A stretch of 52,116 nt of DNA, taken from the IMG/VR virus record IMGVR_UViG_3300025353_000004, positions 1 to 52,116 of that record; one strand, 5' to 3'. This document shows positions 14,979-22,628 of the stretch, piece by piece. This stretch comes from a virus. Its lineage: Duplodnaviria; Caudoviricetes. The notes below the pieces were generated by a model, which worked only from the letters and a program-made list of their open reading frames with translations, had not been told where the DNA came from and ran no database searches. Position 1 is the stretch's first letter, and every line of letters begins with the position of its first letter. Both the position numbers and the translations under genes were made by a program.

Positions 14979-17330
14979 ATGGCTGAAAAAATTATATCAC
15001 CAAACGAATTCATTGACTTTTTAGCAAAACTACCTGCTGAGGGTGAAACTCTTTTGGTGGTTAAGCAAAAACCTGTCATGTCCAATGGTGAACACGCTTT
15101 GCATGGCGACGGGACACCAAAATATACTTGGATTCCGATGTTGCCTGAACGCTACAAGCCTAATGGTTCTCATTACGTTAATACTGGCAGTTTTATTATC
15201 AATCGTTTTAAAGACGGCAAAATGTCGGCTTCTAATGCCAATTGTGAACACACTTTATTTCTGATGTTAGATGATATTGGCACTAAATCTAAAGTGCCAC
15301 CATTAGAGCCAACTTGGAAGCTGGAAACATCGCCGGGTAATCAACAATGGGGCTATGTTTTTGACTTCGATCACCAGCCTACTAAGGGTGAATTCACCGC
15401 CGCTATTAAAGCGATTGCCGCGGCGGGCTATACCGATGGCGGCGCTACTAATGCGGTGCGTAATGTCAGAGTACCCGGTTCTGTTAACTTAAAAGAAGGT
15501 AAAAATTTCTTTGAAGCAAAACTTTTAGAGTTCCATGTGGATCGTGAGTTTAATCTTGACCAAATCTGTAAAGCTTTAGGGGTAAACCCTGAGCAAGCCG
15601 ATACTGCTTTTGTTCGCCCTATCTCTTTAATAGATGATGGGGACGACGACATACTTCAATGGCTTGACGATAACAATCTCATTCTTGAAGAAGGTAATCA
15701 ATCTGGTTGGTATGGGGTAGTTTGCCCGAACTCCGCCGAGCATAGCGATGGCAATCCAATGGGGCGCTATCACCCTCTCAATCGAGCTTACTGCTGTTGG
15801 CATGAGCATTGCCAAGACTTCGGTTCTAAAGCATTTCTATCTTGGGCGGCTGATAACGGCGCGCCTAGACATGAACCCGGTGTGCGGTCTGAACTATTAT
15901 CTAGCGCGCTTTCAATAGCGCTCAAAAAGATTGAGCCTTTTAATCTATTCACAGTTACGCCCGAAGATCAGCTTGCCGAGATCGAGCGTAAAGAGTTGGG
16001 TAGGCTAGAAAAGGAAGATTGGTATGACAGATTCGCCTATGTTCAGTCCGATGATTCTTACTTCGATTTGCTTGCGCGTAACGATATTTCCCGTGGCACT
16101 TTCAATGCGCTTTATCGCCATATCTCTTGCAAGTCTATCCATAATGGGCGCAAGCTTGAAGCGGCTAATTGCTATGATGAGAATCGCGTAGCTCACAATG
16201 CTGTTGCTTTGAGAGGTTTAACCTACGCCGCCGGTGATAGCGCCTTAGTGTCTAGCATGGGTGAATTGCATGGTAATCGGTGGGTTAATGCTCGCCCTGT
16301 TATCCGTTCAAAGGGTGGCAATATTAGCCTTTGGCTTAACCATTGCCATACGCTTGTACCAAACCAAAAGGAACTCGATCACCTTTGGGATATTATGGCG
16401 TTCAAACTCCAAAACCCAAAGATTAAGATCAATCATGCCGTTCTGCACGTTGGCGATGAGGGTTGCGGCAAGGATTTAATGTGGATGCCTTTTGTATGGT
16501 CAGTCTGTGGTGCAGATTCCAAGAATCTTTGCGTAGTTGATAGTGATAAACTTCAGTCCCAGTTCACTTACCATTTAGAGTCAGAGATATTGATTCTCAA
16601 TGAATTAAAAGAACCAGATTCAGCTACCCGTAGAGCATTAGCTAACAAGCTAAAGCCTATCATTGCCGCCCCGCCAGATATGCTGGACATTAATCGTAAA
16701 GGCAAAGATCCATACAAAATGGCTAACAGGCTATTCGTATTGGCTTTTTCCAATGAGCAGATTCCTATCTCTTTATCTTCCCAAGATCGGCGCTGGTTCT
16801 GCATTAGTTCTGAAGCGCAAGCGATGGAAAAGATTAGGGTAGGCTCAGGTCTTGAGCTATACAACTGGTATAGGGCAGGGAACTTTGAACATATTGCTAG
16901 TTGGCTTTACGCCCGTGATGTATCTAAATTCAACCCCGGCTCTGCCCCCGAAATGACTGAATTTAAGATGAATCTTTTAGAGTCAGGCATGAGTAGCCTA
17001 GAGTCCACCATTGTTGAAATGATTAAATCTCGTACAGGTGACTTTGCGCGCGGTGCGATTGGTAGCCCCTTGCATCCTATCTGTGATCGTATTGCTGATT
17101 TGATGGGCATGGGGCGTAATAAAGTACCCCAAAGCGCTTTGCTTCATGCGCTTAAAGAAGCAGGTTGGATTGATTGTGGTAGGCTGGGCGCGGCAGATAC
17201 TAGCAATAAGAAGCGGGTGTTTGCGTCACCAGATGCGGTGCGTAGCTTTAGTAAATCTGAATTACGGCGTATGATTGAGCTACCACCTGAGCCAAAAGCT
17301 GTGGTGTTAGACATGAAGCGGAGCGCATGA
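14979..17330 (+). CDS. Primase-helicase (RepB-like primase, Zn finger, SF3/DUF5906-like NTPase)
   Basis: LDD, ETSPGNQQWGY, RVPGSVN; CP..H..C.H.HC; Walker A GDEGCGKD; ILNE. Confidence 0.88.
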   Translation: MAEKIISPNEFIDFLAKLPAEGETLLVVKQKPVMSNGEHALHGDGTPKYTWIPMLPERYKPNGSHYVNTGSFIINRFKDGKMSASNANCEHTLFLMLDDIGTKSKVPPLEPTWKLETSPGNQQWGYVFDFDHQPTKGEFTAAIKAIAAAGYTDGGATNAVRNVRVPGSVNLKEGKNFFEAKLLEFHVDREFNLDQICKALGVNPEQADTAFVRPISLIDDGDDDILQWLDDNNLILEEGNQSGWYGVVCPNSAEHSDGNPMGRYHPLNRAYCCWHEHCQDFGSKAFLSWAADNGAPRHEPGVRSELLSSALSIALKKIEPFNLFTVTPEDQLAEIERKELGRLEKEDWYDRFAYVQSDDSYFDLLARNDISRGTFNALYRHISCKSIHNGRKLEAANCYDENRVAHNAVALRGLTYAAGDSALVSSMGELHGNRWVNARPVIRSKGGNISLWLNHCHTLVPNQKELDHLWDIMAFKLQNPKIKINHAVLHVGDEGCGKDLMWMPFVWSVCGADSKNLCVVDSDKLQSQFTYHLESEILILNELKEPDSATRRALANKLKPIIAAPPDMLDINRKGKDPYKMANRLFVLAFSNEQIPISLSSQDRRWFCISSEAQAMEKIRVGSGLELYNWYRAGNFEHIASWLYARDVSKFNPGSAPEMTEFKMNLLESGMSSLESTIVEMIKSRTGDFARGAIGSPLHPICDRIADLMGMGRNKVPQSALLHALKEAGWIDCGRLGAADTSNKKRVFASPDAVRSFSKSELRRMIELPPEPKAVVLDMKRSA

Positions 17331-17749
17331 TGTTTTATACCTATATCCATCGTTATCAAGATACGGGGCAAGTGTTTTATGTCGGTATGAGCAAAAATAA
17401 ATCACGCATGACTAGCAAACAACGCCTCCACCAACCTCATTGGTACGCCGCTATTGAAAATAAAGAATGGTTTGCTGAAGCTGTAGCTAATTGGAACACT
17501 AAAGAAGAAGCTGAAAGCCATGAGCAATTGCTAATAGCTTGCTTTAAAGATATGAAACACCCTATCATCAATTTAACCAAAGGTGGGGCAGGGCGCACAG
17601 GCTTTAAATGGACAGCACAAGAACATGAAAAACAATTGGTAAATCAACAAGAACGCGGGCGTAAAGGCGGCTTAATATCTTCAGAAGCAAAGCGCATCAG
17701 CAGTAAACTCAATGGTAAACTAGGTGGTAGACCGAAACGCTTGGGCTAG
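17327..17749 (+). CDS. GIY-YIG-like homing endonuclease
   Basis: FYTYIH...VFYVG, E..LI and NLTKGG motifs; C-terminal NGKLGGRP. Confidence 0.75.
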   Translation: MMFYTYIHRYQDTGQVFYVGMSKNKSRMTSKQRLHQPHWYAAIENKEWFAEAVANWNTKEEAESHEQLLIACFKDMKHPIINLTKGGAGRTGFKWTAQEHEKQLVNQQERGRKGGLISSEAKRISSKLNGKLGGRPKRLG

Positions 17750-17794
17750 AATACACCCCCAAACGCTTGGGCTGAATATTTTATGGAGTTAAAT

Positions 17795-17956
17795 ATGAAC
17801 AAACCAATCAAAAACGATTCAGGCGCAATTAAATACACCAACTTATCTTCGGCTGGTAAAGCAATGGGATCAAAAGGCGGTAAATCTAACTCAGAAGCTA
17901 AAGTACGCGCCGCCAGAGAAAACGGCAAACAGGGTGGCGGGCATACCCCAAAATAA
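17795..17956 (+). CDS. 53-aa KGG/SEAK-type small basic protein (not in ORF track)
   Basis: GGAG RBS; MNKPIKNDSGAIKYTNLSSAGKAMGSKGGKSNSEAKVRAARENGKQGGGHTPK. Confidence 0.65.
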   Translation: MNKPIKNDSGAIKYTNLSSAGKAMGSKGGKSNSEAKVRAARENGKQGGGHTPK

Positions 17957-17967
17957 TATTCCTCTTA

Positions 17968-18036
17968 GGGGCAAAAGCGGATGCTGACCAGTTAGCTGAA
18001 ATGCAAAGGCAGACGTAGCGAGTAGCCCCGCCTTTT
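17968..18036 (+). ncRNA. Candidate structured RNA or complex terminator
   Basis: GGGGC...GCCCC closing stem, inner CUG/CAG pairing, AGUA internal loop, and a downstream T-tract. Confidence 0.35.
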
Positions 18037-18052
18037 TGTTTCATGTGAAACA
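18037..18052. promoter_or_regulatory. parS: parS-like centromere site (host ParB)
   Basis: TGTTTCATGTGAAACA, one mismatch to the chromosomal parS consensus TGTTTCACGTGAAACA. Confidence 0.8.
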
Positions 18053-18080
18053 TTTTTTAAGTCAAAAACACGAATTTAAC

Positions 18081-18095
18081 TGAGAATTGTTCTCA
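18081..18095. promoter_or_regulatory. Fur-box-like 7-1-7 palindrome
   Basis: TGAGAAT-T-GTTCTCA versus TGAGAAT-N-ATTCTCA. Confidence 0.6.
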
Positions 18096-18111
18096 TTTAG
18101 CCGTTTTTCTT

Positions 18112-18122
18112 GTTTTACATAA
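18112..18122 (-). promoter_or_regulatory. XerD-arm-like half site
   Basis: Minus strand TTATGTAAAAC versus the XerD arm TTATGTTAAAT; no good XerC arm. Confidence 0.4.
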
Positions 18123-18150
18123 TACTTTTTTCATTCGGAAAACCCTTATA

Positions 18151-18163
18151 AATCAAGGGCTTA
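18151..18163 (+). promoter_or_regulatory. IHF consensus site
   Basis: AATCAA-GGGC-TTA matches WATCAA-N4-TTR, with AT-rich DNA upstream. Confidence 0.55.
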
Positions 18164-18443
18164 CGGCATTTTTCTAATGCTATTTATACGCAATTTTTTA
18201 ATGAGCGAGCGCGGTCGCATTTGCGCGGGCGCTAGAATAGCCCCGCCGCCGGTTTGCCAATAGAAAAGGGCGCAATATTAGGGCGGCATTAAGCCGCGCC
18301 AATAGAGCGCCCGCAAAATACGGCATTAAATAGCGCGGGCGATATTCTCGCAAATAATCCGCGCCCCTTTAGAGCGCTCAATACTTGCGACAATAGCCCG
18401 CTAAGGGCGCGGCAATGCGCCGCCGCCCCTAAGCTATTGAGAG

Positions 18444-18469
18444 AAAAGAAAAAGCCGCCATAAGGCGGC
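18444..18469 (-). terminator. Intrinsic terminator of the leftward early operon
   Basis: GCCGCC-UUAU-GGCGGC followed by UUUUUCUUUU on the minus strand. Confidence 0.8.
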
Positions 18470-18486
18470 ATTGTTTAATTGTTTAC

Positions 18487-19245
18487 TTAATAGCGCCCTT
18501 CTACACTTAACCAAAAATCCTCTTTTAGCGCTTCGCGGCGCTCGCGGGCGCTGATAATTTCGGCGCGATATTCGCGCAATTTATCGGTTAACGCGTCGCA
18601 AATTGCGCCCGCTAAATCAATGCCCGCCCGCCGTTGCGCTTTAATAGCCACAATGAGAGCGCGCGCCATTTTGCGGGCTTCGCTAATTTGCTCGGCTAAA
18701 TCATCGCGAATTTGCTCGGCTTGAAATTGCGCGTCGGCTTCGCGCCCTTGCTCGGCTTCGCGCTCGGCTATGCTATCAGCGCGGCGGGCGGCATCATATA
18801 TAGCCCCTTGATTTTCTAAATTTTCGCCGTCATTCGGGGCAAATTGCCCTTGTGAAAAGTAGATTAGGGCTATATCGCTTTCACTATAAGCAATAGCGGG
18901 GCAAATAAAAACGCCGCGCCGCCCCGCTTTAATTTTGACAATATAGGGTTTAACTATTTCGCGCTGAAAGCTATCGGCATAATAGCCGGTATATTGAAAG
19001 CGGCGCGGGCTTATATCTTCAATTAGCGCGGCATTATACCCCGTGAGATCATACGCGCTTAAATCGCCGCTTTTATTGTAAAAATTGGCGCTATCATACG
19101 CGATATAGCCCCGCCGTTTATATTTCACTTGATGATTAAGCGCCGCCGCGTAAGCGCCCGCCGGATTATGCACCGCCCATTTTTCAGCTTGTTTTTTTAC
19201 GCTCGCAAGCCGCGCCGTTAATTGATAGCTTATAGAATTGCTCAT
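18487..19245 (-). CDS. Hypothetical early protein with C-terminal coiled coil
   Basis: 252-aa ORF, GAGG RBS, ends just before the terminator. Confidence 0.75.
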   Translation of the reverse strand: MSNSISYQLTARLASVKKQAEKWAVHNPAGAYAAALNHQVKYKRRGYIAYDSANFYNKSGDLSAYDLTGYNAALIEDISPRRFQYTGYYADSFQREIVKPYIVKIKAGRRGVFICPAIAYSESDIALIYFSQGQFAPNDGENLENQGAIYDAARRADSIAEREAEQGREADAQFQAEQIRDDLAEQISEARKMARALIVAIKAQRRAGIDLAGAICDALTDKLREYRAEIISARERREALKEDFWLSVEGRY

Positions 19246-19273
19246 TTTTTAGCCTCTATTCTAAAAACGGGCA

Positions 19274-19328
19274 AAATTACCCGCCATTAGCCCCGCGCTT
19301 AATGCTTAGGGCTAATAGCTGATAATTT
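19274..19328 (-). other. Intergenic 19-bp RNA hairpin (RNase III-site-like)
   Basis: AAAUUAUC-A-GCUAUUAGCCC...GGGCUAAUGGC-G-GGUAAUUU; G-U pairs form only on the minus strand. Confidence 0.5.
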
Positions 19329-19555
19329 TAGGCTTCAATATTTACTATAATTTTTTCACGCCCTTGCATGACGTATAGCGAGCCAATATTAGAATAAATA
19401 CGGCAATAAACCCGCCGCCATTTTTCAGCGTGGAAAATCTTATATTGTGTAGGAATTTTTGAGCCGTAACCCGAAGCCGTATAATTTAAGCCCATTTTTT
19501 GCCATTCTAGCGGCTCGCGTTTAACTTGCGCGCCCGCAAAATATAGGGCGCTCAT
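19328..19555 (-). CDS. Hypothetical early protein
   Basis: YTASGYGSKIPT...WRRVYC..YSN motif; ATGA coupling. Confidence 0.7.
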   Translation of the reverse strand: MSALYFAGAQVKREPLEWQKMGLNYTASGYGSKIPTQYKIFHAEKWRRVYCRIYSNIGSLYVMQGREKIIVNIEA

Positions 19556-21522: not shown

Positions 21523-21689
21523 AAAAACCCCTTAGCGTAAAAATAAACTGTTAAAACAAGGGCGCTTATAACGCCGCCCAAAATGCAAGCGCCGATAATT
21601 TCAAGCGCTGATACGTCATTTTTTTGGTTAATCCTATCGGCTTCGGCTTGTGCTTCGGCGTAAGATTTATACAGTTTTTGCTTTTCCAT
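21519..21689 (-). CDS. First early gene, small membrane protein
   Basis: C-terminal TM helix; directly downstream of a sigma70 promoter. Confidence 0.6.
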   Translation of the reverse strand: MEKQKLYKSYAEAQAEADRINQKNDVSALEIIGACILGGVISALVLTVYFYAKGFL

Positions 21690-21748
21690 TTTGCCCGCCC
21701 TTATCATTTAATTGTCTAAATTGTCATACGTTTTTAAGCGTATGAATA

Positions 21749-21778
21749 ATTATAAGCTGAATTATTTTTACTTGTAAA
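21749..21778 (-). promoter_or_regulatory. Sigma70-type early promoter
   Basis: Minus strand TTTACA-18 nt-TATAAT. Confidence 0.7.
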
Positions 21779-21980
21779 GCATTTTGTTGCATAAAAGCTA
21801 AATTATTTTCTAGGTGTTTACCCTTAGTTTTTATGGTCAAATTGTCTTTTTTTTTGCGGGGATTGTTGCGATATTGTCAAAATGGCGGGCGGGCTTAGGG
21901 CTATATAAGATAAGCTAAAAGCGGCTTTTATGGTTAAGATTGTCATTATAGGTATGCTATGTTTTAAGCAAGTTTTTATA

Positions 21981-22000
21981 TACTGTATAGATATACAGTA
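21981..22000. promoter_or_regulatory. LexA (SOS) box
   Basis: TACTGTATAGATATACAGTA, 19/20 match to TACTG(TA)5CAGTA. Confidence 0.8.
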
Positions 22001-22080
22001 GTATTTTGGCGTGTAGTTGTAGCGCTCAATATATCCGCCGGTGACAATGGACAATATGACAATGGAAAAATGCTGTTAGC

Positions 22081-22227
22081 TTAGGGATAAATGCTAATGA
22101 ATAAGGGCTTAATTCTTAATGCTAAATGCTAATGAATAAGGGCTTAATTCTTAATTCTTAATTCTTAATTCTTAATTCTTAATTCTTAATTCTTAATGCT
22201 AAATGCTAAATGCTAAATGCTAAGGGC
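22081..22227. repeat. Tandem heptamer array (21 units)
   Basis: Strict 7-nt register of TAAATGC, TAATGAA, TAAGGGC, TTAATGC and TTAATTC (seven in a row at 22144..22192). Confidence 0.9.
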
Positions 22228-22328
22228 AAAATCTACCCGCGCCCCGCTATGCTTTAATTTTTCAGCCCTTAGCCGCAAGCATTCAGCTATTAGCTAACGG
22301 CTAACGGGTGACAATCTAGCCCATTCTT

Positions 22329-22356
22329 ATTTGACATAACGTACGTTATACGCAAG
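22329..22356 (-). promoter_or_regulatory. dif: dif-like XerC/XerD site
   Basis: Minus strand CTTGCGTATAA-CGTACG-TTATGTCAAAT; 11-6-11 layout versus E. coli GGTGCGCATAA-TGTATA-TTATGTTAAAT. Confidence 0.75.
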
Positions 22357-22628
22357 CCGTCAAAAAATAGCCGTTTGCTGAATGCTTTTTATAGGGGGTT
22401 TTTTTGCCTATCAAAAAAGAAAAAGGGGGTCATTAATATCTAGTTACCCGATCAGCGGACTTTTTAGCTTTCAGAACACCGCAAAAAGTTCTTTTGCAAA
22501 ACGCAAAAAAATTTTAGAAAAATTAAAACTAAGTTAGTAAACACTAACATATTATGTCAAACAAGCCACTTGCAATCTATAAGGCTTATGCTAATATCGG
22601 TTTATCAATCAACTATAGGGGAGTAGTT

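Follow-up and report, generated by a model that had tools for sequence, protein, structure and literature searches.

A conserved gene-free region with predicted Fur and IHF sites

The IMG/VR record IMGVR_UViG_3300025353_000004 is a tailed phage of 52,116 bp, classed as linear with a completeness estimate of 100, and the entire record is the window analysed here. We studied the 127-bp stretch at 18037-18163, which forms the AT-rich left part of a gene-free gap of 530 bp between a rightward replication operon (+) and a leftward early operon (-). With about even confidence, we read the region of about 18037-18486 as a conserved, gene-free and modular control region that carries a predicted Fur box (18079-18097) and a predicted IHF site (18139-18163). 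A first-pass annotation had placed four host-factor motifs in this stretch, and all four strings are present: a parS-like sequence at 18037-18052, the Fur-type palindrome at 18081-18095, a XerD-like string at 18112-18122 on the minus strand and an IHF core at 18151-18163. The two operons also converge behind terminators as it had described, with a hairpin and T5 at 18036 (+) and a hairpin at 18454-18469 (-). Its picture of host-factor sites gathered in a gene-free convergent gap stands for Fur and IHF and falls for parS and XerD.

This reading was reached by comparison with related phages. The neighbouring gene for a 252-aa protein led to 18 related loci in viral contigs (52-95% identity), and an invariant 15-mer from the gap gave 58 stretches, 22 of which were true homologues by their flanks and the rest chance matches. 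Left out were duplicates at 97% identity or more, three loci whose contigs end inside the gap (L006, L008 and L014) and the distant relatives L017-L019, which were read separately. The main comparison set consists of 16 distinct gap versions. Gene order is kept throughout, with a primase-helicase gene, sometimes a homing-endonuclease-like (HE-like) gene, a small gene, the long gap and a converging gene of about 250 codons.

Inside the window, each motif was counted against 100 dinucleotide shuffles, using consensus sequences for parS, the classical Fur box, the XerD arm and IHF. By these counts only the parS look-alike is rare, and the classical Fur box, XerD and IHF are at chance level. Conservation gives the opposite order: the exact IHF core is found in 14 of the 16 relatives, the Fur-type palindrome in 8 and the parS look-alike in 4, all of one lineage. 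Conservation in homologous phages therefore speaks for IHF and Fur and against parS, and it inverts the confidence ranking of the first-pass annotation. The case shows that conservation can overturn a ranking by match quality, as the best match, parS, is the least supported.

The Fur-type palindrome

The palindrome has a 9-1-9 form at 18079-18097, with a 7-1-7 core at 18081-18095 and no assigned strand, and it was judged by its match to a published consensus and by its conservation. The match of 14/15 claimed for it holds against the GAGAAT variant TGAGAATNATTCTCA and fails against the classical 7-1-7 consensus. At no more than one mismatch to TGAGAATNATTCTCA, the core is the only such site in the window. 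The eight relatives that carry the palindrome were counted at up to two mismatches to TGAGAATNATTCTCA, for which shuffled sequences gave a mean of 0.025. Two copies are present in L040, in L023 and also in the distant L017, and three whole genomes (G000, G001 and G006) have one site each at no more than one mismatch, located in the gap; at this threshold the palindrome was not found in genomes G002-G004. Two phage copies of the palindrome have the classical GATAAT half-site.

Known Fur boxes precede iron genes and, in a few cases, toxin genes of prophages, and none of the papers listed by our literature search on Fur boxes, phage genomes and iron concerned a hub of this kind. The Fur-box consensus from receptor genes of Xanthomonas campestris is AATGAgAATcATTctCATT, of 19 bp (PMC1790865); the 19-mer of the window agrees with it at 16 of 19 positions and those of the relatives at 15-18. 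Identical 15-mers appear in a table of Fur boxes for iron-transport operons that Fur regulates in Enterococcus faecalis (PMC6056675). Because of the conservation and the match to published GAGAAT-type Fur boxes, the earlier Fur call was right in substance, and the evidence supports the prediction that the palindrome is an apparently genuine, conserved GAGAAT-type Fur box. It adjoins what would be the -35 region belonging to a -10-like CATAAT box.

The IHF-type site

The predicted IHF site (18139-18163, plus strand) consists of an A-tract (AAAA, 18139-18142) and the exact core WATCAANNNNTTR at 18151-18163, and it overlaps a small hairpin at 18143-18159. The first-pass annotation had called this match weak, and so it is by number, with six cores in the window where 4.96 are expected. 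The persistence of the exact core among the relatives tells otherwise, since shuffles reach a mean of only 0.35 relatives and a maximum of 2. The N positions of the core vary, with eight different N-tetramers among the relatives, and one relative has the core in inverted orientation. The flanks, which lie outside the pattern used for selection, have an A at position -1 in 15 of 15 unique sites and an A at -12 to -9 in 9-12 of the 15; a T-run stands at +19 to +24 in the aligned sites. IHF is known to recognise such a consensus together with an A-tract. The flanks fit a strong IHF site, and the prediction of an apparently genuine, conserved IHF site is supported.

The parS look-alike and the XerD-like string

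The parS look-alike (18037-18058, plus strand) is a 7-2-7 palindrome at 18037-18052 followed by T6, and it forms a small second hairpin after the terminator. The claim of a strong match is correct as far as the letters go: it agrees with the parS consensus at 15 of 16 positions and, counted on both strands, is the sole site in the window at up to two mismatches, with 0.14 expected (4 of 100 shuffles reached two matches). Its distribution is another matter. The four relatives that have it form one close lineage in which the entire block is conserved, and the other 12 of 16 have an unrelated small hairpin at this position, directly after the terminator T-run. The look-alike folds as a 6-bp hairpin (-4.7 kcal/mol) before its T6. 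In our reading it is a further, weak hairpin of terminator type that is lineage-specific, and its likeness to parS is probably coincidental. Between the look-alike and the Fur box lies an A-tract repeat of variable copy number, the 8-bp unit GTCAAAAA (18059-18069), with one copy in the window, two in L002 and L055 and five in L003.

The XerD-like string of 11 nt matches the XerD arm at 9 of 11 positions, and at up to two mismatches the window holds 62 matches against 54.3 expected. At the XerC arm position only 3 of 11 bases agree at 6 bp spacing, and at most 6 of 11 at spacings of 5-8 bp. The string occurs in 8 of the 16 relatives, solely within the conserved box GTTTKACATAATA, and is the reverse complement of a promoter-type box. 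The XerD arm was consequently rejected as a chance match that has no XerC partner.

Promoter-type and AT-rich boxes

The conserved promoter-type box GTTTTACATAATAC lies at 18112-18125 on the plus strand, with the -10-like CATAAT at 18118-18123. Five copies of TTTKACATAA are found in the genome against 0.85 expected (none of 100 shuffles reaches five), and three of the five sit in two non-coding control regions. In the relatives the box takes the form TTTGACATAAT, and several of them read TGnCATAAT, an extended -10. We read the TTTKACATAAT box as a putative promoter-type box. The repeats of L004 contain three tandem promoter-like sites (10, 10 and 9 of 12 positions), all rightward, where 0.8 are expected. 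The earlier statement that there is no obvious promoter here is thus doubtful: the promoter scan does come out empty, but the TTTKACATAA boxes recur and some relatives have an extended -10.

Two conserved AT-rich boxes, TTTATACGCAA and TTTTTTAATGAGC, follow at 18183-18206 (plus strand), as seen in the alignment, the sequence listing and the TRF output for the relatives. They flank the point at which tandem repeats are inserted in relatives. According to TRF, these repeats have units of 21-23 bp in 2.7-3.7 copies in L022, L028, L036 and L031 (4 of the 16 close relatives). Two of the three distant relatives have other repeats, with units of 21-23 bp in L019 (2.7-3.8 copies when counted with the close relatives) and of 16 bp in L018. 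The only tandem repeat in the gap of the window is an 8-bp unit present twice (18470-18485, score 32).

The first AT-rich box recurs beside a TTTGACATAA box at 22330-22356, after which come a perfect palindrome of 14 bp and a TTATACGCAAG box. This pair of boxes, TTTGACATAA and TTATACGCAAG, stands split apart at 18112-18193. A further TTTGACATAA box, at 22552-22561 on the minus strand, reads TGaCATAAT on that strand and faces the early operon; it is likely an early promoter, judging by its sequence and position.

The GC-rich block and the conserved hairpin

To the right of these boxes lies a lineage-specific GC-rich block (18207-18333, no assigned strand) composed of imperfect hairpins and AATAG-plus-GC units, with an AT/GC periodicity of 13 bp (power 4.4, against a shuffle 99th percentile of 2.2). 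Its GC content is 58%, compared with 40% for the genome and 28% for 18037-18200, and it can be aligned in the closest relatives only.

The best-conserved DNA of the locus is a 66-nt hairpin at 18334-18401, assigned to the minus strand. Its 15-nt arm (18387-18401) is invariant in 15 of the 16 relatives, including some in which the neighbour protein is only 64-69% identical. On the minus strand RNAalifold gives 21 pairs, six of them with compensatory changes, and 95.5% of the cells are paired, compared with 41-58% in slid controls; none of 500 shuffles matched the observed covariation. These statistics are weakened by the relatedness of the sequences and by the derivation of the structure from the same alignment. 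Read on the minus strand, the non-Watson-Crick cells comprise 22 G-T, no A-C and 15 others; helix columns outside the hairpin model contribute one C-A cell. The hairpin also has invariant G-G mismatches. The consensus fold of the plus strand has eight invariant pairs and no covariation, and the minus strand was preferred. The pattern of wobble pairs suggests that the minus strand takes this fold when single-stranded, as RNA or as single-stranded DNA. The hairpin lies beyond the terminator of the minus operon and may serve in retroregulation as an RNA site or in priming as a single-strand signal. Coding potential was rejected for the block: its 187-nt stretch in the window has at least one stop in every frame, and no frame is consistently open across the 16 sequences, only frame +0 of L031 being free of stops.

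A proposed model and its rivals

Starting from sites that are present, rare and conserved among the relatives, from a match to published Fur boxes and from a conserved hairpin, we propose the following model, in which Fur and IHF binding, the activity and direction of a promoter, and its product are inferred. Holo-Fur would cover the -35 region of a rightward promoter that is weak or of the extended -10 type, and IHF would bend the DNA just downstream of the promoter-type box. When iron is low, Fur would leave and transcription would run into the GC-rich structured block, to end at the bidirectional terminator. The outcome might be a non-coding RNA of about 340 nt, or else an origin close by, next to the primase-helicase gene, might be activated. 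If this is true, a phage non-coding transcript or the initiation at an origin would follow the iron status of the host, and a conserved Fur box and IHF site in a hub of a virulent-type phage would tie phage development to the host iron supply. The first-pass annotation had proposed a structural or decoy role for the motifs; such a role may contribute, although the evidence does not require one that is purely structural or decoy.

More tentatively, and with considerable doubt, we suggest that this lytic-type freshwater phage may wire global regulators of its host into non-coding hubs, with Fur and IHF here, as an iron-sensing switch, and LexA at 22.0 kb. In a variant of this tentative reading, replicating genomes would titrate Fur and thereby derepress TonB-type receptors. 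A LexA (SOS) box of the CTGT-N8-ACAG type lies at 21981-22000, with one mismatch to the E. coli consensus and 0.01 such sites expected. It falls within the divergent control region of 1 kb that separates the early operon from the terminase genes, and ACTGT-N8-ACAGT is also found in loci of four distinct relatives. We counted this near-perfect box in favour of the control-region reading, as an instance of the same theme of host-factor sites.

Several observations weigh against that reading. The site in the window has three mismatches to the classical Fur 7-1-7 consensus, and there are 10 such matches where 6.75 are expected; the palindrome is missing from 8 of the 16 relatives. The Fur motif of the host may also differ from the Xanthomonas consensus. 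The distance from the end of the palindrome to the -10-like hexamer varies, being 22 nt in the window and 12 nt in L023. The box of the window lacks the TG of an extended -10, and the promoter scan calls no consensus promoter anywhere within 18037-18486. With regard to IHF, the invariance of the core is partly circular because the sites were chosen by pattern, and the core in the window overlaps a small hairpin that scans as terminator-like in two relatives. Finally, the wobble asymmetry of the 66-nt hairpin favours the minus strand and not a rightward transcript.

Among the alternatives, a phage replication origin is a real possibility, though we think it rather unlikely. The region would then consist of an AT-rich unwinding segment and an IHF site beside repeats, with a hairpin recognised by the primase-helicase; the Fur and promoter boxes would serve transcriptional activation or architecture, so that this explanation overlaps the control-region model. 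The polA, HNH and primase-helicase genes lie immediately upstream, the 28% GC segment of the gap (18037-18200) stands beside the block of 58% GC, and tandem repeats are found in L022, L028, L036, L031 and L019 (21-23 bp) and in L018 (16 bp). The strand-specific wobble pairs of the hairpin are what a single-strand structure would be expected to have. The helicase part of the primase-helicase matches the part at the C-terminus of NrS-1 (E 1.2e-5), and its primase domain has a weak RepB_primase match (21.9 bits, below the cut-off of 24.3). The NrS-1 polymerase depends on an 8-nt recognition sequence that occurs once per strand and has been suggested as an origin (PMC7102993). However, the gap of the window has none of the 21-23-bp repeats, just the 8-bp unit twice, and the 22-bp repeats of L004 can equally be read as tandem promoters. 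The 252-aa neighbour has no informative fold match and no origin-binding protein was identified among the genes considered; GC skew, which tracks gene direction, is for that reason uninformative for locating an origin. There is also a competing region, the 1-kb divergent gap at 21523-22553 with its AT-rich 7-bp repeat arrays. These arrays (22073-22235) hold CTTAATT about 10 times and GCTAAAT about five times and are flanked by AAGGGCTTA units, of which the genome has four copies against 0.8 expected; they are a second candidate for an origin, or a candidate for a packaging site or a variable region.

The remaining explanations deny a role to some or all of the host factors. That the palindrome is the operator of a dimeric regulator encoded by the phage, with a convergent likeness to Fur boxes, would agree with its presence in only half of the relatives, its uniqueness in each genome and the many small early open reading frames (ORFs) that have no annotation. 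We judge it unlikely, as the match takes in the flanking positions of the published Fur consensus of 19 bp (up to 18 of 19), the variation between GAGAAT and GATAAT among phage copies follows known Fur-box variation, and the HE-like 140-aa gene, the sole neighbouring gene compared, does not track the palindrome. Slightly less probable still, in our view, is a zone of termination and RNA stability whose conservation derives from terminators and 3'-UTR hairpins and whose motifs bind nothing. Terminators do stand at both ends of the gap, the parS look-alike and the hairpin overlapping the IHF core each precede T-runs, and the Fur, IHF and XerD counts within the window are at chance. The 66-nt hairpin, too, reads best on the strand of the minus operon, like a retroregulatory RNase site past a terminator, as known from lambda sib. 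Such a zone leaves several things unexplained: the core positions of the IHF site are kept as its N positions change, an exact consensus of the Fur box is found, doubled, in distant relatives, and 530 bp stay gene-free across the group. The joint recruitment of ParB, Fur, XerD and IHF to a structural or decoy hub, as first proposed, we regard as very improbable. It draws on the rare 15/16 match to parS, on the evident gathering of sites for host factors by the phage (Fur, IHF and LexA) and on a likely proteobacterial host that probably has ParABS. Against this, parS is confined to 4 of 16 relatives and to the single lineage in which the entire block is conserved, the match to the XerD arm does not exceed chance and lacks an XerC arm, neither ParB_N nor a tyrosine recombinase was found in the genome, and neither partition nor dimer resolution is an evident requirement of a lytic-type phage.

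Genomic setting of the gap

The phage encodes the terminase, portal, capsid and tail fibre of a tailed phage, and replication-type genes for DNA polymerase A, two HNH endonucleases, a SNF2-type helicase, an exonuclease and a 783-aa primase-helicase. The gap adjoins the downstream side of the polA, HNH and primase-helicase genes. The phage looks lytic-type because neither a ParB N-terminal domain (ParB_N) nor a tyrosine integrase was found in the record. No tRNA or tmRNA was found, and a search of Rfam over the whole window gave no match at the gathering score, with only noise (E of 2.1 or more) in 17900-18520. Near-identical DNA is present in 20 public runs, every one of them labelled as a freshwater metagenome, and there are no RNA runs among the public runs listed. 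For the capsid, polymerase and primase, the relatives belong to phages that infect beta- and gammaproteobacteria; a host search for relatives of the 252-aa protein in bacterial genome contigs found none. Megablast of 16500-19500 against GenBank phages gave no match. A single relative was found in GenBank, MW202483.1 (primase 49%, polymerase 55%), and downstream of the primase it shows no synteny.

The last gene of the plus-strand replication operon (17783-17956 in the ORF list) encodes a 57-aa protein with a KGG/GG-rich tail that has no Pfam, PHROG or NCBIfam match. Upstream of it, at 17327-17749, lies the HE-like 140-aa gene that is present in some relatives only. The C-terminus of its product repeats the KGG...NGK-GGRP tail of the small protein that follows. 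This suggests that the small gene had its end duplicated by a mobile insertion.

On the other side, the last gene of the minus operon (18487-19245, minus strand) encodes the conserved 252-aa protein (PHROG 8188, unknown function) that served as the anchor for finding relatives. Its predicted model (pLDDT 69.4) has no PDB match at E of 0.001 or less, and its four BFVD matches are three proteins named as uncharacterised and one unnamed. We considered whether it could be an initiator, but ERF/Rad52-like rows appear only at E 0.2-0.3 and no assignment is possible. The other neighbouring small ORFs gave nothing useful against NCBIfam and Pfam. A scan for DnaA boxes was set aside: all 16 relatives match at one mismatch, but the scan is uninformative because shuffles already reach 8 of 16.

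The minus operon ends at the terminator at 18454-18469, a 6-bp GC hairpin with TTTTTCTTTT that was called on both strands by the terminator scan and is kept in relatives. Being bidirectional, it could also end a rightward transcript.

A structured element upstream of the motifs

Immediately to the left of the motifs, at 17968-18036 on the plus strand, lies a conserved structured element that consists of GGGGYRAAAGCGGAUG, a variable hairpin and CGYAGCGAGUAGCCCC (to 18031), as defined by alignments and a covariance model. A conserved ACC tail comes after the second motif, and the variable hairpin measures 4-85 nt across loci. Here the element acts as the terminator of the plus operon, because GCC and T5 come after it. 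The fold of the window sequence puts the closing stem of the element where predicted, and the covariance model R1, built from the alignment, finds a single match in the window, at 68.2 bits.

The element is not confined to this phage. A 14-mer scan of viral contigs gave at least 120 stretches, and the 5' half is present too in 40 of 116 matches in loci taken from those listed. With the earlier loci added, the listed matches gave at least 50 distinct cores, including one false positive. The alignment comprises 36 cores, 14 having been left out as duplicates, divergent variants or the false positive, and the covariance model finds 32 copies at E of 0.01 or less in 100 loci. Examples are L033 (4586-4658), L090, L099, L116, L167 and about 40 others. 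The outer stem is invariant save for C-G and U-G alternatives, and the closing pairs at the base of the variable hairpin covary strongly and in a compensatory way (CUG/CAG, CUA/UAG, UUG/CAA, CUU/AAG and CCG/CGG). The helix of the variable hairpin is only 57.7% paired because a register difference of 1 nt between two subclasses spoils the column statistics.

In all 36 cases the element is on the coding strand and the stop of the upstream frame ends at most 22 nt before GGGG; in L007 the upstream frame runs into GGGG itself. Small ORFs homologous to the 57-aa gene stop just short of the element in relatives. The protein encoded upstream often has an acidic C-terminal tail of the ...DDDVPF type, a form like that of the C-terminal tip of SSB, and a polymerase or primase gene often comes after the element. 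The element has no match in Rfam, and its sequence strings were not found in the literature searched. It is possibly a processing site, a protein-binding site or a mimic of a tRNA acceptor. As it is widespread in phage replication operons and has no Rfam match, it merits a study of its own.

Comparison with known systems

The two motifs that lost support differ from their models in several respects. With chromosomal parS, the loading site of ParB-CTP, the look-alike shares a 16-bp palindrome at 15 of 16 positions; it differs in being a single copy with a central CG-to-TG change, present in one lineage only and in a phage that has no ParB, and in relatives other hairpins take its position. To the dif/XerCD site of E. 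coli, the likeness is limited to the 11-nt string at 9 of 11, whereas the XerC arm agrees at 3 of 11, the matches number 62 against 54 expected and the string is part of a promoter-type box.

The gene position of the gap is that of origins beside primase-helicase genes, such as the ssiA/ssiB hairpins of RSF1010 oriV and the SaPI and P4 origins, and that of the NrS-1 recognition sequences (PMC7102993). The phage region is likewise AT-rich beside GC-rich DNA, with a conserved strand-specific hairpin and with repeats in relatives. It differs in having no tandem repeats in the window other than the 8-bp unit and in the competing region at 22.1 kb.

With the IHF sites of phage lambda (attP H' and cos) and of iteron plasmids, the phage site shares the exact WATCAANNNNTTR core, an A-tract about 8 bp upstream and a location in an AT-rich cis-acting region. 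Those sites serve recombination, packaging or an origin; the phage site is a predicted one, and its core in the window overlaps a small hairpin. The palindrome, for its part, shares with the GAGAAT-type Fur boxes an inverted repeat with the same specified bases. It differs from them in its setting, a gene-free convergent gap of a lytic-type phage with no iron-uptake gene downstream.

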